Source: Bacteroidales bacterium | Lineage (GTDB): Bacteria; Bacteroidota; Bacteroidia; Bacteroidales; JAADJA01 | DNA: 64,000 bases | Reading direction: 5' to 3' | NCBI GenBank assembly: GCA_047920975.1 | Contig: JBLRXC010000001.1 | Location: forward strand, 12,220-76,219 | Shown here: one piece after another, positions 40,070 through 50,691 of the stretch | Layout: every line of letters begins with the position of its first letter | How positions within the stretch are numbered: position 1 is the first letter of the stretch | Notes under the pieces: generated by a model | Told to the model about the DNA's origin: nothing | Databases searched by the model: none | Seen by the model: the letters and a program-made list of their open reading frames with translations, nothing else | Position numbers and translations under genes: made by a program

Positions 40070-40144
40070 GGTGGTTGTAGCTCAGTTGGTTAGAGCGTCA
40101 GATTGTGGCTCTGAAGGTCGTGGGTTCGAATCCCATCTTCCACC
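40070..40144 (+). tRNA. tRNA-His (anticodon GTG) with an encoded G-1; no encoded CCA
   Basis: Manual cloverleaf. G-1 (40070) opposes C73 (40144). D stem gctc/gagc. Anticodon stem tcaga/tctga with loop ttGTGgc. T arm gtggg-ttcgaat-cccat. The acceptor stem gtggttg/cttccac has two adjacent U-U mismatches. Confidence 0.8.
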
Positions 40145-40154
40145 CGAAGCATGA

Positions 40155-40191
40155 TTGGAAACTGGCAACTGACCGGTTTCCAATTTTTTTT
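40155..40191 (+). terminator. Rho-independent terminator after tRNA-His
   Basis: 8-bp stem ttggaaac/gtttccaa with a 13-nt loop, then a T8 run at 40184..40191. It overlaps the stop codon of the convergent 1413-aa gene. Confidence 0.7.
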
Positions 40192-43100
40192 AAATCCATT
40201 TCAGCAACGGAAAATCCTGCCGGTGGGGAAGATCTTCATGCACCGGATAAATTCTGAAGGCAAAGTCGAACACTCCGGCTTCAACCAGGTTTATGGAGCA
40301 TCCGAATGTAGCTTTTGAACCATTGGCCCTCAATAATTCCAGGTCATAGTGCTTGTAAATTTCTGTCACCTGATCCATGACCTTCTGCCCGAAAATTATC
40401 TCAATTCCGAGATATTCGGGATCAATACCATTGGTGCCAACCACAAGTTCCACCTCAAAATGTTCTCCGAGGTCAAGCGGTCTTGTATTTGAATCAGGCA
40501 ATCTGACGGAAATAATCTCAATACCATTCCACCTTTCGAGAATTCCCTTTTTCCAGGCCTCCATTTCAAAGGCAAGTTTCAGGTTTTCATTGCGAACTTT
40601 TTTTATTCTTTCAAAGAGTTTGTTGTAGAACTTTTCATAATAGTCCTCCAGCATCCGCTTCATCGTGAAATGCGGAATAATTCCTGTGATATTTTGTTTG
40701 AGGTATCCGATCCACTTGTGGGGAACCTCCTGTTTATCCCGTTCGAAATAGAGTGGCAAAATCTCATCGCTGATCATCCGGTAAATGATTTTGGCATCAA
40801 GTTCATCCTGAAAGGTCTGATTGGCATATGTTTTAGCTTCCTGGATGGCCCATCCGGCCCTGGGAACGTATCCTTCAGCCCACCATCCGTCGAGGACGCT
40901 CAGGTTGAGCACACTGTTCATCGCTGCCTTTTCACCGCTGGTGCCTGATGCTTCCATTGGTCTGGCTGGAGTGTTCAGCCATACATCAACACCTGAAACT
41001 AGATAGCGAGCAACGTGCATGTCGTAATTTTCAAGGAAGAATATCTTCCCGATGAAAGCAGGCATCTTGGAAATTTCGATGATCCGCTTAATCATATCCT
41101 GGCCAGGCTTGTCATTTGGATGAGCTTTCCCTGCAAACACAAACCGGAGCGGATGATCATCACGATTGACAAGCTCTTCCAGGGTTTCCAGGTTTGTGAA
41201 CAGCAGATGTGCTCTTTTATAAGTGGCAAACCGTCGTGCAAAACCAAAATAGAGCGGCTTTTCGCTGATGCCGTCCAGTGTTTTGGCAATGATCCCGGGC
41301 GATTCCTGCCTGTTGGTCAGGTCAGTTTCCATTTTTTGCCTCAGATAATTTACGAAGTCACTTTTAGCCCGGAGCCGTTGCTCCCAGATCTCTTCATTGG
41401 AAACTTCCGCCATTTGCATCCATAGCCTGGCATCAGTCTGATTGTCCATGATTTCATGACCCAGTTTGGATAGGTGGAATTTTTGCCAGTGGATGGTAGT
41501 CCAGGTCGGGTAATGTACGCCGTTGGTAACATGGCCGATATGCAGTTCTTCAGGATAATAGCCGGGATAAAGTCCGGCAAACATCTCCCGGGAGACCCTG
41601 CCATGAATTTTACTAACGGCATTCATTTCCTGTGAGAGGTTGGCAGCCAGCACACTCATGGAGAACTTTTCATCAGGTACATTTTTTCTGTATCTGCCAA
41701 GATTCATAAATTCATCCCACGACATATTCAGACGGTCGGCATAGTGTGGGATATAGGTCCTTAGTGTGTCTTCTGAAAATGTATCATGTCCTGCAGGAAC
41801 CGGTGTATGGGTGGTGAAAAGGGATGACGCCCTCACAACTTCAATGGCTGCCTGTACACCAATACCCCGGGATTCGACAAGATGCCTGAGTCTCTCCAAT
41901 CCGGCAAAAGCAGCGTGACCTTCATTGAGGTGATAAATATCTGGTTTTTTATGGATAGCCCTGAGAAGCCTCACGCCTCCCACACCCAGCAAAAGCTCCT
42001 GTTTAAACCGGTTATGCCAGTCACCTCCGTAGAGATGATGGGTTATTGCCTTGTCCTCGCTTGTGTTGCCTTCAATATCGGTGTCGAGCAGATACAGGTC
42101 AATTCGTCCGACACAGACTTTCCATGCTTTTGCCACCAGGGTCCGGCCTGGAAGTGCAAGCATCACATGGATCCACTCGCCTTTTTCATCCCTTACCGGG
42201 ATCAGTGGCAGGTCGGTATATTTGTGAGGCCTGCTTTCGGCGATCTGATCACCTGAAATCGAAATACCCTGTGTAAAATAGCCATAACGATAAAGCAGGC
42301 CGACACCTGCAATGTTTTTATTGGAATCACTGGCCTGTTTCAAAAAATCGCCGGCCAGGACACCAAGTCCTCCTGAATAGATCTTTAGTGATTCGTGTAA
42401 CCCGAATTCCATACTGAAGTACCCGACTTTTTGATCGGACATGTGCGCCTTTTCAGCCATATAAGCTTTGAATTCAGCATGGATGGATGTCAACACGTTC
42501 ATAAATTGACCATCCCGCTTCAATTTGTTCAACCTGTCATAGGAGAGCCTGTTCAGAACAGCAACAGGATTATGGTCTGTTTCAGCCCACAATTTTTCAT
42601 CCATGGAAGCAAACAGGTCAGCTGCCTCATGATGCCATGTCCACCAAAGGTTCATGGAGAGTATTCTCAAAGGCTCAAGCTCAGGGGGTAATGTGCTCGC
42701 AACAAATATTTTTTTCCATTCGGGCTTGTCATAAACTCCGTTACCATGAATAGGATACTCCCGGGAGGCCCGTCGTTTAAACCCTGCAGAACGGCTGTCA
42801 AGTTTACTCAGAGCAACCGTGTAAAGTTCCATATACTTAGATGAAAGATGCTTCCATTCAAGCTTTTCTGCGATCACCAGACTTTCTTCCCGCGATTTTT
42901 CCAGGTCAATTGCAGAGCAGTTTGTAAAATATCCGAACCGGTTAAAAATCTCATCAACGAAGGTTTCGAAATTGTCCTCTGTCCGCTCTATGACCGATAC
43001 CGAGTGATGGGGCATTTGGTAGAAGGATTTTACCCACGCTCCGAATCCTGCAAGTGTGGTTGTGAGGGTAGGTACACCAAAAGCAATGCTTTCAAGTGGT

Positions 43101-44431
43101 GTATATCCCCAGGGTTCATAAAATGAGGGAAAGGCCGACAGGTCGCATCCTTTCAGGAACTGATAATAATCAATGTTGAAAATTCCATCATGTCCATCGA
43201 GGTACACCGGAACAAACAGGATTTTTACCCTGCTGTCAGGACTGTTGGTTAGTTCATTTTGCTGAATCCTGCTGATGACAGAATCATCGTTGTAATCATA
43301 AAGTGAGTGGGTAAGGTATTCGCCGGTCAACGGGTATTGAAAATCCGGTTCTTCAATCCTTTTCTTAACCTCTTTTTTTGGACCTGAATGGTTTGCCGGG
43401 ACTGCAATGATGGCCAGCACATGTCGTTTCGGGCTGTTCTCACGGTTCAGTCTGCCAAGGGCATCAATGAAGGCATCCAAGCCTTTGTTTCTGAACTCAT
43501 ATCGTCCACTGGTGATGATAATCAGGGTATCATCAGGCAGCTTCTGGTTGAACACCCCGCTGGCTACCTGCAGTATTTTTTCCCGGTTCTTCTCACGTTC
43601 CTTTTTGAGGGATACGTCATTCATTTCAACCGAAGCTGAAAACCCGTTGGGTGTGACCACATCAGGTTGTCTGTCCAGGAAATGAGCACATTCCGCGGCT
43701 GTGATCTCGCTTACGGTTGAGAAACTATCTGCCTCGCAGGCTGAATTGCGTTCAAGGGAATGTTTTGAGATGATACCAAGTCTCCTGGCTGTGTCAACCG
43801 GATCGATATGCTCCAGGCCGGAATACAGGGTAAGGTTATTCCCCGCCATACTTCTGCCGAGAGAGGTCGCATGCGTTGTAAATACGGTACCAATATGGGG
43901 TGCAAATTCTTTGAGGTAAAGAATTCCTGCCCCGGTCATCCATTCATGAAAATGGCCAATCAGTTTTTCACCGGAAGTCAGGTAAAAGTTTGTAAAACTC
44001 TCGATCACTTTACCGGCCGCATACCCGAAAAGTGCAGGTTCAATGTAATCCCATCCCCCTGAAAGTGAGTCGAGCTTGTAGGTTTCCCAGAATCCTGATA
44101 AAATCTTATCCTTGAGTGCAAAATAGGTCGTGAAATCCACCAGTACAGCCACTGGCTTGCCTGGAATGTTCCAGTGTCCGATCCTTACACGAAGGTCTTC
44201 CTTTTCAGTGTGTTCAACCCACTGACGGAAAATACTTTTGTCTTCTATGAAGTCGGGATTTTCCCGGGTCTCTTTCCAGACATCGGGTCCGATGAATATA
44301 TATTTGTTACCAAAATCACCCTTTACTGACGGGTATTTTGAAGAGAGAACGGTGTAAATGCCTCCGACTTTGTTGCAAACTTCCCAACTTACTTCAAACA
44401 AATAATCGGGGCCTGTTTTGTGTTCTGACAT
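40190..44431 (-). CDS. Fusion protein: N-terminal GT3 (eukaryote-type) glycogen synthase plus C-terminal alpha-glucan phosphorylase (DUF3417 + GT35)
   Basis: 1413 aa. N-terminal half: LFEVSWEVCNKVGGIYTVL, FHEWMTGAG, FPSFYEPWGYTPLES. From about residue 580: NLWWTWHHEA, YFSMEFGLHESLKIYSGGLGVLAGD, EASGTSGEKAAMN. It is one uninterrupted ORF. Confidence 0.85.
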   Translation of the reverse strand: MSEHKTGPDYLFEVSWEVCNKVGGIYTVLSSKYPSVKGDFGNKYIFIGPDVWKETRENPDFIEDKSIFRQWVEHTEKEDLRVRIGHWNIPGKPVAVLVDFTTYFALKDKILSGFWETYKLDSLSGGWDYIEPALFGYAAGKVIESFTNFYLTSGEKLIGHFHEWMTGAGILYLKEFAPHIGTVFTTHATSLGRSMAGNNLTLYSGLEHIDPVDTARRLGIISKHSLERNSACEADSFSTVSEITAAECAHFLDRQPDVVTPNGFSASVEMNDVSLKKEREKNREKILQVASGVFNQKLPDDTLIIITSGRYEFRNKGLDAFIDALGRLNRENSPKRHVLAIIAVPANHSGPKKEVKKRIEEPDFQYPLTGEYLTHSLYDYNDDSVISRIQQNELTNSPDSRVKILFVPVYLDGHDGIFNIDYYQFLKGCDLSAFPSFYEPWGYTPLESIAFGVPTLTTTLAGFGAWVKSFYQMPHHSVSVIERTEDNFETFVDEIFNRFGYFTNCSAIDLEKSREESLVIAEKLEWKHLSSKYMELYTVALSKLDSRSAGFKRRASREYPIHGNGVYDKPEWKKIFVASTLPPELEPLRILSMNLWWTWHHEAADLFASMDEKLWAETDHNPVAVLNRLSYDRLNKLKRDGQFMNVLTSIHAEFKAYMAEKAHMSDQKVGYFSMEFGLHESLKIYSGGLGVLAGDFLKQASDSNKNIAGVGLLYRYGYFTQGISISGDQIAESRPHKYTDLPLIPVRDEKGEWIHVMLALPGRTLVAKAWKVCVGRIDLYLLDTDIEGNTSEDKAITHHLYGGDWHNRFKQELLLGVGGVRLLRAIHKKPDIYHLNEGHAAFAGLERLRHLVESRGIGVQAAIEVVRASSLFTTHTPVPAGHDTFSEDTLRTYIPHYADRLNMSWDEFMNLGRYRKNVPDEKFSMSVLAANLSQEMNAVSKIHGRVSREMFAGLYPGYYPEELHIGHVTNGVHYPTWTTIHWQKFHLSKLGHEIMDNQTDARLWMQMAEVSNEEIWEQRLRAKSDFVNYLRQKMETDLTNRQESPGIIAKTLDGISEKPLYFGFARRFATYKRAHLLFTNLETLEELVNRDDHPLRFVFAGKAHPNDKPGQDMIKRIIEISKMPAFIGKIFFLENYDMHVARYLVSGVDVWLNTPARPMEASGTSGEKAAMNSVLNLSVLDGWWAEGYVPRAGWAIQEAKTYANQTFQDELDAKIIYRMISDEILPLYFERDKQEVPHKWIGYLKQNITGIIPHFTMKRMLEDYYEKFYNKLFERIKKVRNENLKLAFEMEAWKKGILERWNGIEIISVRLPDSNTRPLDLGEHFEVELVVGTNGIDPEYLGIEIIFGQKVMDQVTEIYKHYDLELLRANGSKATFGCSINLVEAGVFDFAFRIYPVHEDLPHRQDFPLLKWI

Positions 44432-44680: not shown

Positions 44681-44713
44681 TTGCAAAATAAAAAAATAAT
44701 AGATCGATTTTTA

Positions 44714-45037
44714 ATGGCAAAGAAAGTAGCATTTGAACCGGATGTCCTTGAACTGGCCAGGTACGCCAAGGCACTAAGCCACCCTGTAAGGGTTTATATC
44801 CTGCGGAAACTCTCGAAAATGAATGCCTGTTGCTACAGTGGTGACCTCGTAGATGAACTGCCGATCGGGCGTTCGTCTCTGTCACAGCATTTAAAAGAAC
44901 TAAAACATGCCGGATTGATAAAAGGCGAAACCGAACCGCCCTTCATTAAATATTGTATCAACCGGGATAATTGGGAGGCTGCAAAAAATTTGCTGGCTGA
45001 TCTCATCGATGATGGTGAAACTGCTATTAAATGTTGA
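44714..45037 (+). CDS. arsR: ArsR/SmtB-family transcriptional repressor
   Basis: The ATG at 44714 gives MAKKVAFEPDVLELARYAKALSHPVRVYILRKL...NACCYSGDLVDELPIGRSSLSQHLKELKHAGLI, a wHTH with a vicinal Cys pair. Confidence 0.85.
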   Translation: MAKKVAFEPDVLELARYAKALSHPVRVYILRKLSKMNACCYSGDLVDELPIGRSSLSQHLKELKHAGLIKGETEPPFIKYCINRDNWEAAKNLLADLIDDGETAIKC

Positions 45038-45092: not shown

Positions 45093-45488
45093 ATGAAAAG
45101 ATCAATTGTGTTTTTAATGGTATTTGCCCTCTTTACGGGTATTGAAAGCATTGCACAAAAAGCAGAGGTTTTGTACTTTAAAGCCAACCTTGCCTGTTGC
45201 CAGGCTCGTTCGTGCAATGCCCTTGAAACGGATGTGAAAGCGGCTGTTGAGAAAAGCTTCACAAATGGTGATGTTTCATTTAAAGTTCTGAAACTGGCTG
45301 ATGAAGCAAATAAAAAGCTGGTTGAAAAATACCATGCCAAGTCGCAAACTGTGGTTGTTGTTGCAACCAAAAGGAAAAAGGAAACCTCTGTTGATATTTC
45401 CGACATCATTCGTGATTATTCACGCAACCGGAACAAGGATCTCCTTGAGCAAAATCTTATTGCCAAAGTGAAAGAGTGTATGAAGTAG
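45093..45488 (+). CDS. Small secreted Cys-motif protein, possibly thioredoxin-fold; unknown role in the ars island
   Basis: 131 aa. Signal peptide, then AEVLYFKANLACCQARSCN...KSQTVVVVATK. I vaguely recall a family named ArsF-like for such proteins but cannot verify this. Confidence 0.5.
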   Translation: MKRSIVFLMVFALFTGIESIAQKAEVLYFKANLACCQARSCNALETDVKAAVEKSFTNGDVSFKVLKLADEANKKLVEKYHAKSQTVVVVATKRKKETSVDISDIIRDYSRNRNKDLLEQNLIAKVKECMK

Positions 45489-45649: not shown

Positions 45650-46969
45650 ATGGATTATAAAAGGGAATTCAAGATACTGTTCTGGATGATCGCCATTTTT
45701 CTTGGTGTGTTTTTTCTCCCTCTTGACAGCAAGGTCTTCAACACGGCGATTGATGCCACACTTGACCTTTCAAAATGGTATGCACAGGAACATGTGATCC
45801 TCTGTCTGCTACCCGCATTTCTGATTGCCGGGGTCATCTCCGTTTTTGTCAGCCAGGGGTCAGTCATCAAATATTTTGGAGCAAAAGCTAAAAAATGGGT
45901 TGCCTATTCAGTGGCTTCTGTCTCAGGAACAATCCTGGCAGTCTGCTCATGCACGATTTTGCCCCTTTTCTCAAGTATTCACAAGCGTGGTGCAGGATTG
46001 GGCCCGGCCATAGCCTTCTTGTACTCAGGACCTGCCATCAACATCCTGGCTATCATTCTGACGGCCAGAATCCTTGGGTTTGAAATGGGATTGGCAAGGG
46101 TTATCGGAGCCGTTGTATTCGCTGTGCTCACCGGCAGCATCATGGCCATTATCTATCGCAAGGAGGAACGCGCGAAGGCCAAAGAACAGCTTGATTTTCC
46201 GGATGTTCCCGAAACAAGACCTCTATGGCAGACCTCCCTCCACTTTTTTACCCTTGTGCTCATTCTGGTATTTGCAAACTGGGGAAAACCGGAAGCGGGA
46301 GATACAGGAAGTATATGGTATCTTCTATGGGCCAACAAATGGTATATAACCGGAGCTTTTGGCCTGATCCTCGTCTATTCCATGATCAGTATCCTGAAAA
46401 TGAAGGGATGGCAGGTGCTGCTGGGTGCGGTGATCACTATGGTCTCGGCTTTTCTCTTTGGGAACCCCTTGATAACCATGGTGATTGGGATGGCCGCAGT
46501 GAGTACCATTGCACTTATGGATAAGGCCGACCACGGCGAAAACAGGGAGTGGATCATCTCAAGCTGGGATTTTACAAAGCAGATCGTTCCGCTGCTCGCC
46601 ATTGGGGTTGTCATTGCAGGATTTCTGCTTGGCTCAACACATGACGATACCAGCATTCCCGGCGTCATCCCCAATGAATGGGTAGCATGGCTGGTGGGCG
46701 GCAACTCAATTGCAGCAAACTTCTTTGCATCCATTGTCGGAGCCTTCATGTATTTTGCAACCCTGACAGAGGTCCCGATTTTGCAGGGCTTACTGGCTTC
46801 CGGGATGGGAAAGGGGCCTGCACTGGCACTTTTATTGGCCGGACCGTCACTCTCGCTGCCTAACATGCTGGTGATCAGGGGTGTGATCGGAACGCAGAAA
46901 ACACTGGTCTATATTGGGATTGTGGTGGTTTTGTCAACTGTCGCCGGATTAATTTATGGAAGTCTGTAA
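45650..46969 (+). CDS. Permease of the ArsP / YraQ (DUF318) family
   Basis: 439 aa, polytopic, with a vicinal-Cys motif in a TM helix (LAVCSCTILPLF) as in organoarsenical permease ArsP. It is followed by its usual small thioredoxin-like partner. Confidence 0.75.
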   Translation: MDYKREFKILFWMIAIFLGVFFLPLDSKVFNTAIDATLDLSKWYAQEHVILCLLPAFLIAGVISVFVSQGSVIKYFGAKAKKWVAYSVASVSGTILAVCSCTILPLFSSIHKRGAGLGPAIAFLYSGPAINILAIILTARILGFEMGLARVIGAVVFAVLTGSIMAIIYRKEERAKAKEQLDFPDVPETRPLWQTSLHFFTLVLILVFANWGKPEAGDTGSIWYLLWANKWYITGAFGLILVYSMISILKMKGWQVLLGAVITMVSAFLFGNPLITMVIGMAAVSTIALMDKADHGENREWIISSWDFTKQIVPLLAIGVVIAGFLLGSTHDDTSIPGVIPNEWVAWLVGGNSIAANFFASIVGAFMYFATLTEVPILQGLLASGMGKGPALALLLAGPSLSLPNMLVIRGVIGTQKTLVYIGIVVVLSTVAGLIYGSL

Positions 46970-47003
46970 ACATCAAATTCATAAAAAAATGGAAGAAACA
47001 CCC

Positions 47004-47246
47004 ATGCTTGAAATTAAGGTTTTGGGGCCTGGTTGCCCCAATTGCATAAGGCTTGAAATTTTATGCCGTGAGGTTATTTCAGAGAAGAATCTGGAAGCTA
47101 ACCTCACAAAAATTACGGATATAGATGAAAACGGAAAGTATGGTGTTATGCTGACACCCGGCCTGCTTGTGAATGGAAAAACGCTGTTGCAAGGCAAACT
47201 ACCTACTAAGTCAACACTGGAAAGATGGCTCTTAAAAGAGATTTAA
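47004..47246 (+). CDS. Small thioredoxin-fold protein (redox-active disulfide protein 2 / TM0996-like)
   Basis: The ATG at 47004 gives MLEIKVLGPGCPNCIRLE...TPGLLVNGK. An alternative ATG is at 46989. Confidence 0.8.
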   Translation: MLEIKVLGPGCPNCIRLEILCREVISEKNLEANLTKITDIDENGKYGVMLTPGLLVNGKTLLQGKLPTKSTLERWLLKEI

Positions 47247-47339: not shown

Positions 47340-47846
47340 ATGAAAACATCCTTAGCTTTAATCACAGTATTTACGCTTTTTTTCCTGTTTTCGTGTAATT
47401 CATCAGACAAAGATCCCAGACGAACACAAAAAGCGCCTCAGGCAAAGCCAAACAAAGAGCAAATCGCTCCGGTGAGTTCAGAACAAGCTCAGCCTGCTGA
47501 GGCTGAAACAGCTGAACAATCTTCAACAGAACAAAACCAGGCAGAGGTAATGCTCAATCCTCCGCATGGCCAACCCTATCACCGGTGCGATATTCCCGTT
47601 GGTGCGCCTCTTAACACTCCTCCGGCAAATGCCGGCAGTCAAACATCCGGCAATTCTGCTGTAAACACAGCAACCCGGACGACAAAGAACCCAACTGCCC
47701 CAACCATTGAAAATGCAATGAAGGTAAATCCTTCGCAGACACAAAATGCGGGGACTGCAGACAAAGGGACCAAACCAAAGCTGAATCCGGCACATGGACA
47801 ACCATACCACCGGTGTGATATCCCGGTGGGTAGTCCACTGCCATAA
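47340..47846 (+). CDS. Lipoprotein with a disordered Q/A/E/T-rich body and two copies of an LNPxHGQPYHRCDIPVGxPL motif
   Basis: 168 aa with lipobox FLFSCNS. Motif copies at residues 72-91 (nt 47553..47612) and 148-167 (nt 47781..47840) are 18/20 identical in protein but differ at most synonymous sites. Confidence 0.7.
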   Translation: MKTSLALITVFTLFFLFSCNSSDKDPRRTQKAPQAKPNKEQIAPVSSEQAQPAEAETAEQSSTEQNQAEVMLNPPHGQPYHRCDIPVGAPLNTPPANAGSQTSGNSAVNTATRTTKNPTAPTIENAMKVNPSQTQNAGTADKGTKPKLNPAHGQPYHRCDIPVGSPLP

Positions 47847-47890: not shown

Positions 47891-48316
47891 ATGAATATTT
47901 TAATTTTATGCACAGGCAATAGTTGCCGCAGTCAAATGGCACACGGTTTTTTGCATAGCTTTGACAAAAACATAACTGTTCGTTCGGCAGGAACGGAACC
48001 CGCCATGCAGGTGAACCATACTGCCGTAAAAGTGATGAAAGAAGTCGGAATTGACATCGGCCATCATACCCCCAAATTGGTTGATCAATACCTGAATGAC
48101 GAGTGGGATTTTGTGATCACCGTTTGCGATCATGCCAATGAAACATGTCCGGTGTTTATGGGAAAAGTCAAACATCGCTTACACATCGGGTTTGAGGACC
48201 CTTCGCTTGCGAAAGGTTCAGATGAATTTATTGTAAGCGAATTCTACAGAATACGGGACCAGATCAGAAATGAATTTTACAAGTTTTACATCCAACAAAT
48301 TAAGCCTCAATTATGA
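47891..48316 (+). CDS. arsC: Arsenate reductase, LMW-PTP / thioredoxin-coupled type
   Basis: The ATG at 47891 gives MNILILCTGNSCRSQMAHGF (CX5R P-loop), plus downstream Cys residues (VCDHANETCP). Confidence 0.9.
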   Translation: MNILILCTGNSCRSQMAHGFLHSFDKNITVRSAGTEPAMQVNHTAVKVMKEVGIDIGHHTPKLVDQYLNDEWDFVITVCDHANETCPVFMGKVKHRLHIGFEDPSLAKGSDEFIVSEFYRIRDQIRNEFYKFYIQQIKPQL

Positions 48317-49122
48317 AAGCAGATGATCTAAAATTTATCGTGAAAGAAAAGTACAGCCAGATTGCCAGGCAGAGCGGACTCCGGAGGGAATCATCCTGCT
48401 GCGGTCCGTCATCCTGCTGTGGAGACCAGGAATTAAGCATGATCGGTGATGAATACCAGAACATTGAAGGCCACATGCCCGATGCCGATTTGGGTTTAGG
48501 ATGCGGAATACCTACACAATTTGCCGGTATCGAAAAGGGACACTATGTGCTGGATCTGGGCAGCGGAGCCGGAAACGACTGTTTTGTGGCACGCGCTATT
48601 GTCGGTGAGACCGGAAAAGTAACCGGACTTGATTTTTCGGATGATATGCTTGAAATGGCACGACAGAATGCCCTGAAACTGGGTTATTCCAATGTTGAGT
48701 TTATAAGGGGCGACATTGAGGATATCCCATTGCCGGATTCAGTTTTTGATGTAGTTGTTTCCAATTGTGTTCTGAACCTGGTTCCGGACAAAAAGAAGGC
48801 CTTTGCTGAGATCATCCGGGTGATCAAACCCGGCGGTCATTTCTGCATTTCGGATGTGGTGGTGAAGGGAGAACTCCCTGAAAAACTGAAAAAGGATGCA
48901 GAGATGTATGCGGGATGTGTTTCCGGAGCATTGCCAATTCAGGAATATCTTGATCTGATCACACTGGCAGGATTCAAGGACCTTCAGGTTCACAAGCAGA
49001 AAAGCATTCATATTCCCAAAGAGATATTGAAGCAATATCTGAAAGAGGATGAATTGGAAAACTATCTGGCTGGAGATTTTGGGATTTTGTCCATCACGGT
49101 CAGTGGCAAAAAAGGAATATAA
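48313..49122 (+). CDS. arsM: Arsenite S-adenosylmethionine methyltransferase
   Basis: 269 aa. Cys pairs SSCCGPSSCCG, SAM motif VLDLGSGAGND, later Cys (FCISD, AGCVSGA). ATGA overlap with arsC. Confidence 0.85.
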   Translation: MKADDLKFIVKEKYSQIARQSGLRRESSCCGPSSCCGDQELSMIGDEYQNIEGHMPDADLGLGCGIPTQFAGIEKGHYVLDLGSGAGNDCFVARAIVGETGKVTGLDFSDDMLEMARQNALKLGYSNVEFIRGDIEDIPLPDSVFDVVVSNCVLNLVPDKKKAFAEIIRVIKPGGHFCISDVVVKGELPEKLKKDAEMYAGCVSGALPIQEYLDLITLAGFKDLQVHKQKSIHIPKEILKQYLKEDELENYLAGDFGILSITVSGKKGI

Positions 49123-49149: not shown

Positions 49150-50211
49150 ATGAGCAGTCAATTCAGGAAAGTGGTGATTCCGGATAGACCCAGGAAAACC
49201 ATCGGATTTTTTGAAAAGTACCTCACCCTGTGGGTTGCATTGTGTATCCTTGGCGGTATAGGGATTGGTCTTTTGGCAGGTGATCACATGAATGTGATTA
49301 GCAATATGGAAATAGCCCGGGTGAATATACCTGTTGCCATTCTGATCTGGCTGATGATCTACCCGATGATGCTGCAGGTTGACTTCTCCAGCATCAAACA
49401 AATCGGTAAAAAGCCAAAAGGGGTGGTATTAACGCTTGTTATCAACTGGTTGATCAAACCATTTACAATGGCCTTTTTTGCCTGGATATTTTTCTCAAAG
49501 CTCTATGCCGCCTGGATAGATCCGGCATTGGCCGGTGAATACATTGCGGGCGCCATTATCCTCGGCGCTGCTCCCTGTACGGCTATGGTTTTTGTGTGGT
49601 CGTACCTTACTGATGGTGATCCGAACTATACCCTTGTTCAGGTCTCTGTCAACGACCTGATCATCCTGATTGCGTTTGTCCCGATCGTTGGATTGTTGCT
49701 TGGGATCACCGATGTTACGATCCCTTATGATACACTTGTGGCCAGTGTTGTAATTTTCGTGGTTGTTCCTTTGGTTGCCGGCGTAATTACACAGCAAATC
49801 CTTCTGAAATCGCACGGGGTTGACTGGTTCAAACAGCAGTTTCTTCCCAAACTCAAGCCGGTAAGTATCCTTGCTTTGCTTATTACCCTTGTGCTGCTTT
49901 TTGCGTTCCAGGGACAAAACATCATGAATAATCCGCTCATTATTCTAATGGCAGCCATTCCTTTAGTGATCCAAACCTATTTTATCTTTTTCCTGGCCTG
50001 GTATGGAGGACGGTGGCTAAAACTCCCCCACAATGTTTGCTCGCCGGCGGCCATGATCGGCGCCAGTAACTTTTTTGAACTGGCTGTTGCCGTTGCCATC
50101 GCGCTATTCGGACTGCAATCACCCGCTGCATTGGTAACAGTCGTCGGGGTGCTCGTGGAGGTACCGGTGATGCTGTCGCTGGTGGCGCTGGCGAACCGGT
50201 GGAGATATTAG
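49150..50211 (+). CDS. acr3: ACR3-family arsenite efflux transporter
   Basis: 353 aa, ten-TM BART-superfamily pattern. [23 protein letters not shown]. Confidence 0.9.
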
Positions 50212-50496: not shown

Positions 50497-50691
50497 ATGA
50501 AAATATTTTTATCCACCATCACCTGTCCTCATTGCGGTCACCGAAAAGAAGAACGCATGCCGGAGGAGAGTTGTCAGTTTTATTATGAATGTGAGAAATG
50601 TCATGTCTTGTTAAAACCCAAACCGGGTGATTGTTGCGTGTTCTGCTCGTATGGGTCGGAAAAATGCCCGCCGGAGCAGATGCGTTATTGA
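50497..50691 (+). CDS. Small Cys-rich zinc-ribbon-like protein with a GDCCVFC motif (GDCCVxC family)
   Basis: 64 aa. CPHCGH...CQFYYECEKCH...GDCCVFCSYGSEKCP, ten Cys in total. Confidence 0.7.
   Translation: MKIFLSTITCPHCGHRKEERMPEESCQFYYECEKCHVLLKPKPGDCCVFCSYGSEKCPPEQMRY

Follow-up and report, generated by a model that had tools for sequence, protein, structure and literature searches.

A lipoprotein with repeated His/His/Cys boxes from an arsenic resistance cluster of Bacteroidales as a candidate envelope metal(loid) binder

What is a small lipoprotein of no recognised family doing among the genes of an arsenic resistance cluster? The question is raised by a gene (47340..47846) in a 64,000-nucleotide stretch of DNA from a Bacteroidales bacterium (GenBank assembly GCA_047920975.1, contig JBLRXC010000001.1, positions 12,220 to 76,219), hereafter the window. 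The encoded protein carries two copies of a 20-residue box with two His and one Cys, and a preliminary description had proposed that it acts as a periplasmic chaperone or buffer for As(III) or another metal. The analysis reported here places it in a large family whose boxes recur in several kinds of resistance locus, and leads us to propose, at slightly less than even odds (a probability of roughly 0.45), that it is a membrane-tethered, multivalent binder or buffer of metal(loid) ions in the cell envelope.

Two boxes on a predicted lipid-anchored tether

Translation of the open reading frame (ORF) gave a 168-residue lipoprotein with a low-complexity body, as first described; everything outside the boxes is rich in Q/A/E/T/N/P. 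The two boxes (Table 1) share 18 of 20 residues, and nothing but Pro168 and the stop codon comes after box 2; this bears out both their positions and the placement of the second copy at the C-terminal end. Written as a 20-24-mer peptide, the box is EVMLNPPHGQPYHRCDIPVGAPLN. Box DNA differs at 16 of 60 bases, with 11 codons differing synonymously only and two altering the residue. By the Nei-Gojobori method, there are 12.7 synonymous differences over 15.3 sites (pS 0.83, saturated) and 3.3 non-synonymous differences over 44.7 sites (pN 0.075). The combination of saturated pS and low pN indicates an old duplication with the peptide under strong purifying selection, in agreement with the earlier argument from third-position differences. 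The box motif was not found anywhere else in a six-frame translation of the window. The boxes contain no Met ligands, the sole nearby Met lying in an EVML flank, and no CxxC motif was found in the lipoprotein. P0001, an identical protein in a Bacteroidales metagenome-assembled genome (MAG) at NCBI, carries the annotation 'hypothetical'.

The N-terminus consists of MKTSLALITVFTLFFLFS followed by Cys, that is, a typical basic and hydrophobic lipoprotein signal and then a lipobox. Ser18 and Cys19 are invariant in an alignment of 25 homologues, and rules and regular expressions applied to sequence alone called a lipobox-like Cys in at least 70 of 79 homologues from species genomes and 69 of 78 from metagenomes (both samples are described below). 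The window protein is thus very probably exported and lipid-anchored. In Bacteroidota, surface export is signalled by K-(D/E)2 or Q-A-(D/E)2 after the lipidated Cys (PMC5080379). This signal is missing from the window protein, which reads C-NSSDKD, and from most Marinilabiliales members, which read C-[SNGT]-P-A-[KQ]-x-[DE]-S. It was matched in five of 70 scored homologues, mostly of the Chryseobacterium type C-KKDE; the Flavobacterium sequence C-KKEE also fits by eye, and fell outside the 70 because its lipobox was missed. Surface exposure is therefore plausible for some members, and the family may face the periplasm in some lineages and the surface in others.

AlphaFold2 modelling of the whole protein from a 120-sequence alignment gave a mean predicted local distance difference test score (pLDDT) of 51.8, a prediction of disorder, with no helices other than the signal helix and a short helix at residues 123-128. 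The box modelled alone reached a pLDDT of 65 and had no secondary structure. Given these low scores for both the protein and the isolated box, an autonomous box fold is not predicted.

Conservation is concentrated in the boxes, for which the family consensus is [LIM]-N-P-x-H-G-x-P-x-H-R-C-[D/E]-[I/V]-x-V-G-x-P-L. In alignments of 25 and of 120 homologues, N73, P74, H76, G77, P79, H81, R82, C83, G88, P90 and L91 of box 1 are invariant, as are the equivalent positions of the terminal box, and the linkers diverge. The motif is near-invariant both among 205 distinct boxes of 120 close homologues and among 245 boxes that metagenome members contributed. At box position 8 the Marinilabiliales type has an aromatic residue (W/Y/F) or N/H/G, and the type sampled from metagenomes has Gly; the residue after the box Cys is usually acidic.

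A third conserved element, missed in the preliminary description, lies at residues 120-130, between the penultimate and the last box. Its pattern, APT[ILV]ENAxRLN (APTIENAxxxN), occurs in 52 of the 79 genome homologues, almost all of them Marinilabiliales-type records and MAGs, and in none of the named Flavobacteriales. P121, T122, E124, N125 and N130 are invariant in the 25-homologue alignment, and the motif holds the only helix predicted apart from the signal peptide. It could be a lineage-specific docking element.

A widespread family without recognised domains

A homologue search with the window protein (E <= 0.01) returned 1,623 proteins labelled 'hypothetical' or 'RodZ', none with a Pfam domain. 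The JGI label 'cytoskeletal protein RodZ' carried by some members was rejected as a low-complexity artefact. When a box-only profile of 26 positions was scored against 1.84 billion representatives clustered at 50% identity, 1,628 proteins were found at E <= 1e-3 and 1,399 at E <= 1e-10. The best 150 of the 1,628 representatives are 146-398 residues long and have three to seven matched stretches, with no sign of other domains. Across the family the architecture is constant, comprising a lipobox Cys and one to seven boxes separated by low-complexity linkers of 20-60 residues, and no other domain was seen; in a member with seven boxes the linkers are S/T/P/A/N-rich.

A scan of one genome per species yielded at least 509 confirmed family loci, of which the best 80 were taken as the sample for genomic context; 79 had a call for the family gene. 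Among these best 80, the Marinilabiliales are represented by Mariniphaga, Sunxiuqinia, Draconibacterium, Marinilabilia, Tangfeifania and Maribellus, and the Flavobacteriales by Chryseobacterium, Flavobacterium, Myroides, Capnocytophaga, Kaistella and Epilithonimonas; the remaining sources are Sphingobacteriaceae and one Ignavibacteria MAG. Two boxes are present in 56 of the 79 proteins and three in 21, and nearly all have both the terminal box and the lipobox Cys.

Comparison with reference collections supported the earlier statement that no characterised ars component resembles this protein. No Pfam or NCBIfam family matched the window protein (E <= 0.1) or four distant multi-box members, and NCBIfam matches to mycoplasma lipoproteins were rejected as signal-peptide or low-complexity noise far under the cut-off. 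Neither the full-length nor the box-only profile had a meaningful match among PDB sequences; the sole match, to a coronavirus spike protein (E = 0.7), was rejected as chance. There was no tblastn match in PLSDB plasmids, and no description of the family was found in the literature by box motif strings or by topic. A likeness of HRCDIPVG to the nickel hook of nickel superoxide dismutase (HCDLPCG), prompted by a Sod_Ni gene near locus L001, was rejected, since a free N-terminal His and a second Cys are essential to the hook.

Genomic settings of the family

In the window, the box lipoprotein gene lies between the thioredoxin-like gene and arsC, as first noted, within a co-directional cluster that also encodes an ArsR/SmtB-family regulator, ArsP_1 and Acr3-type permeases and an ArsM-like methyltransferase (Table 1). 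The gene order, including the box lipoprotein, recurs on an independent assembly (L088). Placement within a co-directional, ArsR-headed operon with arsC, arsM and acr3 was found in the window, L088, L025, L027, L029 and L033-L035. Because the gaps are short, the box lipoprotein is probably co-transcribed with arsR-arsP-trx-arsC-arsM-acr3. A promoter and terminator scan of the operon performed no better than on shuffled sequence, the sigma-70 model used being ill-suited to Bacteroidota promoters.

Table 1. Positions in the window of the box lipoprotein gene, its parts and the neighbouring ars cluster.
Feature	Position	Strand	Basis
Whole gene, 168-aa lipoprotein with two His/His/Cys boxes	47340..47846	+	ORF translation
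Signal peptide with lipobox L-F-S-C, predicted lipidated Cys19	47340..47396	+	Sequence rules, alignment
Tether 1, disordered, low-complexity, Q/A/E/P/S-rich	47397..47552	+	AlphaFold2 pLDDT <50 at residues 27-67; homologues diverge
Box 1, LNPPHGQPYHRCDIPVGAPL, aa 72-91, His76/His81/Cys83/Asp84	47553..47612	+	Alignment of 120 homologues, box profile
Third motif, APTIENAMKVN, aa 120-130, short predicted helix	47697..47729	+	Alignment and AlphaFold2
Box 2, LNPAHGQPYHRCDIPVGSPL, aa 148-167, His152/His157/Cys159/Asp160	47781..47840	+	Translation; terminal box usual in homologues
ArsR/SmtB-family regulator, first gene of the co-directional cluster	44681..45037	+	Pfam HTH_5; NCBIfam metalloregulator ArsR/SmtB, 52.7 bits, under the 55-bit cut-off
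Secreted 131-aa Cys-rich protein, ArsF-like below threshold	45093..45488	+	NCBIfam NF040494, 47.5 bits against a cut-off of 60
ArsP_1-family permease	45650..46969	+	Pfam PF03773, E = 3e-68
MTH895/ArsE-family thioredoxin-like protein, adjoins upstream (93-bp gap)	46956..47246	+	Pfam Thioredoxin_3; NCBIfam TIGR00412, 79.8 bits, over the cut-off of 62
Low-molecular-weight (LMW) phosphatase-type arsenate reductase ArsC, adjoins downstream (44-bp gap)	47891..48316	+	Pfam LMWPc; L088 gene call agrees
ArsM-like S-adenosylmethionine (SAM) methyltransferase	48313..49122	+	Pfam Methyltransf_31/11/25; N-terminal Cys pairs in translation
Acr3-type arsenite efflux permease	49150..50211	+	Pfam SBF
GDCCVxC-domain Cys-rich 64-aa protein, cluster end, after a 285-bp gap	50497..50691	+	NCBIfam NF041374, 104 bits, cut-off 40

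Together with the ArsF-like and ArsE-family proteins on either side of it, the ArsP_1 permease resembles an arsEFG-type module, of the kind acting on nitroaromatic arsenicals, built into a classical arsRCM-acr3 operon. Just upstream of the cluster are a tRNA-His gene (40071-40145) and a minus-strand ORF for 1,413 residues (40190-44431) whose product, judged by its translation, resembles a fusion of glycogen synthase and glucan phosphorylase. Within 10 kb in the window there was no sign of an integrase or transposase, and the ars cluster is accordingly not obviously on a mobile element.

For the 79 species loci, six neighbours per side were collected with crude ORF calls, and recurrent clusters were named by the Pfam or NCBIfam match of one representative each. 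An arsC, arsM, acr3 or arsP gene lies within six genes of the box lipoprotein at 17 loci, or at 20 when ArsR is counted too. Strictly metal-related neighbours (HMA, HMBD-CusB, an HMA-bearing TonB receptor, HYC_CC_PP or a secreted Cys-rich protein) were found at 14 loci. Either ars structural genes or this strict metal class are present at 30 loci, and the count rises to 43 when ArsR, RND/OEP/YnfA, thioredoxin, DsbD, DsrE and DUF1573 are included (RND, resistance-nodulation-division).

At the ars-linked loci the genes come in at least five orders. With X for the box lipoprotein, these are Trx-X-ArsC in the window; ArsR-X-DUF1573-Acr3-ArsC-ArsM (L025, L027); ArsR-ArsP-...-ArsC-ArsM-Acr3-X (L018, L019); X-ArsR-ArsC-(...)-ArsM-Acr3 (L001, L017, L022, L047, L049, L058); and ArsP-DUF1573-X-IscA-like-ArsR-ArsC-ArsM-Acr3 (L029, L033-L035). 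Re-association in several orders points to a selected linkage and not merely to inherited synteny. Association with ars genes is not consistent across the family, and many ars operons lack the gene: at L003, L009, L015 and L044 it lies 2-4 kb from the ars operon with unrelated genes between (4 kb at L003), and the core ars operons of L003 to L005 are without it.

Two further settings carry the same box and are at odds with an arsenic-specific role. One is a Cu/Ag/Zn-type RND efflux cluster, CusB(HMBD+HMA)-CusA/CzcA-OEP-X-YnfA-HYC_CC_PP-HMA, often with a second RND set following it, in which X is directly 3' of the outer-membrane factor and the pump scores 784 bits with TIGR00914, over the cut-off. 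The other is a two-component operon of Chryseobacterium-type loci (L060, L067, L074, L076, L081, L083, L086), where a histidine kinase (HK) and a response regulator (RR), RprY-like below the cut-off, precede X, a Cys-rich secreted protein and a TonB receptor that, unusually, bears an HMA domain. The Cys-rich protein of this module is secreted, has 124 residues, a CC..CC..C..C..C pattern and an IWQPPKIG end, and no Pfam or NCBIfam match was found for it. Stand-alone ArsR/SmtB-X-DUF1573 units occur at L014 and L020. The box sequence is the same across ars, RND and TonB loci, and a search for context-specific ligand variants among them found none.

The commonest immediate neighbours are exported thiol proteins, namely DUF1573 and a membrane-anchored CxxC thioredoxin. 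DUF1573, a secreted, OS_HP2-like Ig-domain protein of about 131 residues with an invariant ASCGCT (CGC), is found at ten loci (L010, L015, L018, L020, L025, L027, L029, L033, L035, L051), always at +1 or -1 and on either side. This adjacency suggests that DUF1573 and the box lipoprotein form a functional pair.

Several further elements were observed around the family gene. In the X-arsR gap of Marinilabilia-type loci is an uncalled, conserved 48-aa ORF (L001:8610-8860, L022:10325-10557, L049:10577-10846, L058:10583-10837); its product has a signal peptide, a lipobox and a mature part of about 21 residues ending in HK-x-[AV]-P-C-P-C-S-Q-[GR]-R, with a CxC motif (SCSCAHRR at L058), and may be a further small envelope thiol lipoprotein of these islands. 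Within the last ~70 bp 5' of arsR, an inverted repeat, TGACGTATAATTACGT ... TTTGACGTATATTTGCGTCAAA, is conserved at L001, L017, L022, L047, L049 and L058; we regard it as a candidate ArsR operator. No copy lies upstream of the box lipoprotein in those six loci, where a shared operator was sought, or upstream of the window arsR, a member of a different (arsP-linked) ArsR subgroup. At L069, L071, L077 and L085 (Flavobacterium, Paenimyroides), a conserved protein of about 1,135 residues, for which no Pfam or NCBIfam match was found, is encoded directly upstream, after an amino-acid kinase. At L038, L043 and L055, the lipoprotein follows a sulfur-trafficking-like cluster of DoxX, an ArsR-rhodanese fusion, a class-V aminotransferase (cysteine desulfurase-like), two DsrE proteins and a thioredoxin.

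A second sample was obtained by scanning metagenome contigs with a profile from GHRCD-type multi-box proteins. It comprises 80 loci, 78 with a called gene, from records that are mostly soil or rhizosphere by name. The proteins repeat the family architecture, mostly with three boxes. L164 and L166 repeat the HK-RR-X-Cys-rich-TonB(HMA) operon; no ars operon was found among the 78 loci, and one has an ArsM-like neighbour.

Proposed function and its alternatives

In the mechanism that we propose, each box would wrap one soft or borderline metal(loid) ion through His76, His81 and Cys83, Asp84 possibly serving as a fourth ligand, and would fold only upon binding it. The disordered tether would display several such sites at the membrane surface, and the lipoprotein would act as a buffer for thiophilic metal(loid)s, either in the periplasm or at the cell surface. 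Bound ions may then pass to Acr3 or ArsP in the window, to CusCBA-type pumps elsewhere, or to a TonB-dependent receptor, and the window copy would be made together with the ars cluster once arsenic is sensed. Such a binder is supported by invariant boxes amid freely diverging linkers, by synonymous saturation, by the lack of a predicted autonomous fold, and by the linkage to ars and metal genes, ArsR/SmtB units and thiol-protein neighbours; the bead-on-a-string layout suits multivalent binding. As the box is constant across contexts, its ligand chemistry is no guide to which ion is bound. A His2Cys(Asp) set is better suited to Cu, Zn, Cd or Ni than to As(III). The As(III) sites of known arsenic proteins are made of three thiolates, to which one Cys per box is a poor match; this counts against As(III) as the ion suggested in the preliminary description. 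Two-box proteins could clamp methylarsenite (MAs(III)) between two Cys.

Several observations weigh against this proposal. About 30 of the roughly 45 metagenome loci with usable flanks have one housekeeping synteny without metal genes, in which the box gene stands alone on the strand opposite to its neighbours (SnoaL-like, ammonium transporter, TrmB-like methyltransferase, LysE, MGMT-like and ribosome hibernation factor), and metal-linked metagenome loci number only two or three. The metal-free AlphaFold2 model, of low confidence, lends no support to a metal site, and no solved homologue was found. The non-ligand residues (Asn, Pro, Gly, Arg, Val, Leu) are conserved beyond what is seen in SilE/PcoE-type sponges, and recognition by a partner or an enzyme could explain the box instead. 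In the X-ArsR order the candidate operator comes after X and not upstream of it, which weakens the case for co-regulation there. The species counts are themselves drawn from a best-80 sample biased towards relatives of the query, with shared synteny making the loci non-independent. The housekeeping synteny is probably a single lineage counted repeatedly; it nonetheless means that the family is not an obligatory part of resistance islands. The suggested enrichment of the motif near ars and metal genes thus stands for the species genomes (30 of 79 loci) and fails for the metagenome sample, and the linkage to metal(loid) loci is real but lineage-dependent and not arsenic-specific.

Among the alternatives, a role independent of metal deserves slightly more weight than the others, improbable as it is: the boxes would serve as short linear motifs by which a conserved partner, such as an outer-membrane, peptidoglycan-associated or TonB-dependent protein, docks, and the island linkage would be secondary. 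Surface lipoproteins commonly partner TonB receptors, as in the Sus-like, BtuG and XusB systems of Bacteroidota. Conservation of the entire 20-mer beyond its potential ligands, the solitary gene in the housekeeping neighbourhood of a large, mostly soil and rhizosphere lineage, and its position beside TonB-dependent receptors in Chryseobacterium-type loci are all consistent with docking. Against it, ars structural or HMA/HMBD-type genes lie near 30 of 79 species loci versus about 1-2% by chance (a rough estimate, because an ars operon and metal pumps make up less than 1% of a genome), re-association has occurred in at least five gene orders, and the invariant His-x4-His-x-Cys is a typical metal ligand set. 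An arsenic-specific periplasmic chaperone or buffer appears a shade less probable still. Here the box Cys, with His perhaps contributing, would capture As(III) or the two-coordinate methylarsenite that ArsM produces, protecting the envelope or feeding ArsP or Acr3. MAs(III) prefers Cys pairs, as in ArsR(M), ArsP and ArsI. The gene sits inside the window ars operon with gaps of 93 and 44 bp, lies between ArsR and Acr3 in L025 and L027, and has ars structural genes within six genes at 17 of 79 species loci in several orders, while two boxes supply the two thiols that MAs(III) favours. The boxes are, however, not separable by context, as the CusCBA/HMA, TonB-HMA and housekeeping loci carry the same motif; the invariant His pair has no role in three-thiolate sites, the copy number ranges from one to seven, and the core ars operons of L003 to L005 do without the gene.

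Two readings that centre on the chemistry of the Cys are both unlikely, and the least probable of those considered. If the protein were a client of thiol redox or sulfur relay, its Cys would be cycled by exported thioredoxins, DsbD-like proteins or DUF1573 (CGC), for example as persulfide or mixed disulfides, and would not hold metal. Recurrent thioredoxin (10 loci), DsbD_2 (6), DsrE (5) and DUF1573 with its invariant CGC (10, always adjacent) fit this account, as do the rhodanese-ArsR fusion and cysteine desulfurase that also recur nearby. Such genes are nevertheless common in Bacteroidota ars and metal islands anyway, DsrE, rhodanese and cysteine desulfurase are cytoplasmic, the His pair and Pro/Gly frame are left unexplained, and the housekeeping synteny has no thiol neighbours. 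Alternatively, the protein may be a precursor or scaffold whose box Cys are modified by an enzyme encoded elsewhere, yielding a lipidated metallophore akin to a peptide made by ribosomal synthesis and modified after translation (RiPP), and the strict conservation would reflect enzyme recognition. The closest parallel is NedA, a precursor with a signal peptidase II (SPII) signal and EGKCG repeats that MNIO enzymes convert to a copper-binding lipopeptide (PMC13056109); bufferins and oxazolins are likewise secreted Cu-binding peptides used under metal stress (PMC11626156, PMC11252979). The box is conserved at almost all positions, its last copy lies at the C-terminus, where ChrH-type enzymes act, and a DoxX protein with a weak HvfX-like match is near the gene in four loci. 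Known systems keep the enzyme beside the precursor, however, and no MNIO/DUF692, DUF2063 or other maturase was found within 10 kb in the window. None was found either in the Pfam-annotated contexts of L001, L003 and L006 or among the annotated recurrent neighbour clusters of the 79 and 78 loci, a negative that covers most clusters common to at least four loci (c11, c29, c33 and c36 had no Pfam hit, and c28, d8-d11 and d14-d17 were unscanned). It is possible that the enzyme is unlinked to the family gene.

The proposed metal(loid) binder was also compared with known envelope systems. SilE and PcoE are periplasmic sponges of silver and copper islands, with HxxM-type motifs and a presumed role in envelope metal buffering. 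Like them, the box protein is small, exported, disordered without metal and built on repeated ligand motifs, and is found in metal-resistance clusters beside a CusCBA-type pump. There is no homology (no Pfam match at E <= 0.1): SilE and PcoE are soluble, use His and Met and have no Cys, whereas the box family sets His-x4-His-x-Cys-Asp in a rigid Pro/Gly frame with 20 conserved positions on a lipid anchor. CopL of Staphylococcus aureus and YdhK of Bacillus (DUF1541) are membrane-anchored copper-binding lipoproteins. They too are encoded together with genes for metal resistance, and a role in capturing metal outside the cytoplasm to limit its entry is attributed to them; CopL consists of folded DUF1541 domains, unlike the box protein with its predicted disorder and no Pfam domain. 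DAG-RiPPs, oxazolins and bufferins share with the box family a signal-bearing precursor (SPII or Sec) with repeated, conserved Cys core motifs, and are linked to copper or metal stress with a proposed role in membrane sequestration (PMC13056109, PMC11252979, PMC11626156). The box differs from the EGKCG, CPxCGxG and bufferin cores in sequence and in its conserved His. MNIO-dependent RiPPs, chryseobasins among them, need an adjacent MNIO (DUF692, PF05114), usually with a DUF2063 or RiPP recognition element (RRE) partner, to turn Cys into heterocycles; the annotated box loci have no such enzyme.

Other likenesses are looser. Prion octarepeats (PHGGGWGQ) also place P-H-G repeats, often with an aromatic residue, on a disordered membrane tether (P-H-G-Q-P-W/Y/F-H in the box). 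Prion-type His repeats bind copper and zinc multivalently, a helpful picture of how a tether of this kind would operate. They are unrelated in origin, and the box is longer (20 residues), separated by linkers, and has an invariant Cys and a second His. ArsD, CopZ and MerP are small metal(loid)-binding accessory proteins of resistance operons that deliver substrate to a transporter, a role that would resemble the one proposed here; ArsD, however, is cytoplasmic and has a thioredoxin fold with Cys12/Cys13/Cys18, and the box protein has an export signal and one Cys per box. In Pfam and NCBIfam the window lipoprotein matched neither the ArsD family nor, at E <= 0.1, HMA (PF00403; MxCxxC, ferredoxin-like fold). 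By analogy, the functional likeness appears closest to SilE/PcoE and CopL and the architectural likeness to lipidated oxazolins, with homology to none of them. What we describe is an unnamed, widespread family and motif, probably with a familiar job.

Soils, sediments, oceans and guts all harbour abundant Bacteroidota, yet little is known of how this phylum handles metals in its envelope. The classical periplasmic chaperones and sponges (CusF, SilE/PcoE, CopC/K) include no match to the box lipoprotein. With more than 1,600 clusters at 50% identity, a near-invariant motif and repeated recruitment into resistance islands, the family is a candidate for a missing envelope layer, and one that is cheap to test, because a 20-mer peptide suffices for initial binding work. 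A family name and profile would allow consistent annotation of thousands of 'hypothetical proteins', some of them mislabelled 'RodZ'. A bolder version of the proposal, which we regard as doubtful, is that NPxHGxPxHRC[D/E] is an unrecognised metal(loid) module widespread in Bacteroidota, present one to seven times on a lipid-anchored tether and recruited as a buffer or relay into ars, CusCBA and HMA-TonB loci. In ars loci it would then possibly be the first extracytoplasmic binder of arsenic or methylarsenite, or else the box would be the substrate of a modifying enzyme and define a new class of lipidated metallophore. If As(III) or methylarsenite is bound, an extracytoplasmic step would be added to arsenic resistance; if Cu, Zn or Cd is bound, the family would help to account for the supply of metal to CusCBA-type pumps and HMA-bearing TonB receptors in Bacteroidota.

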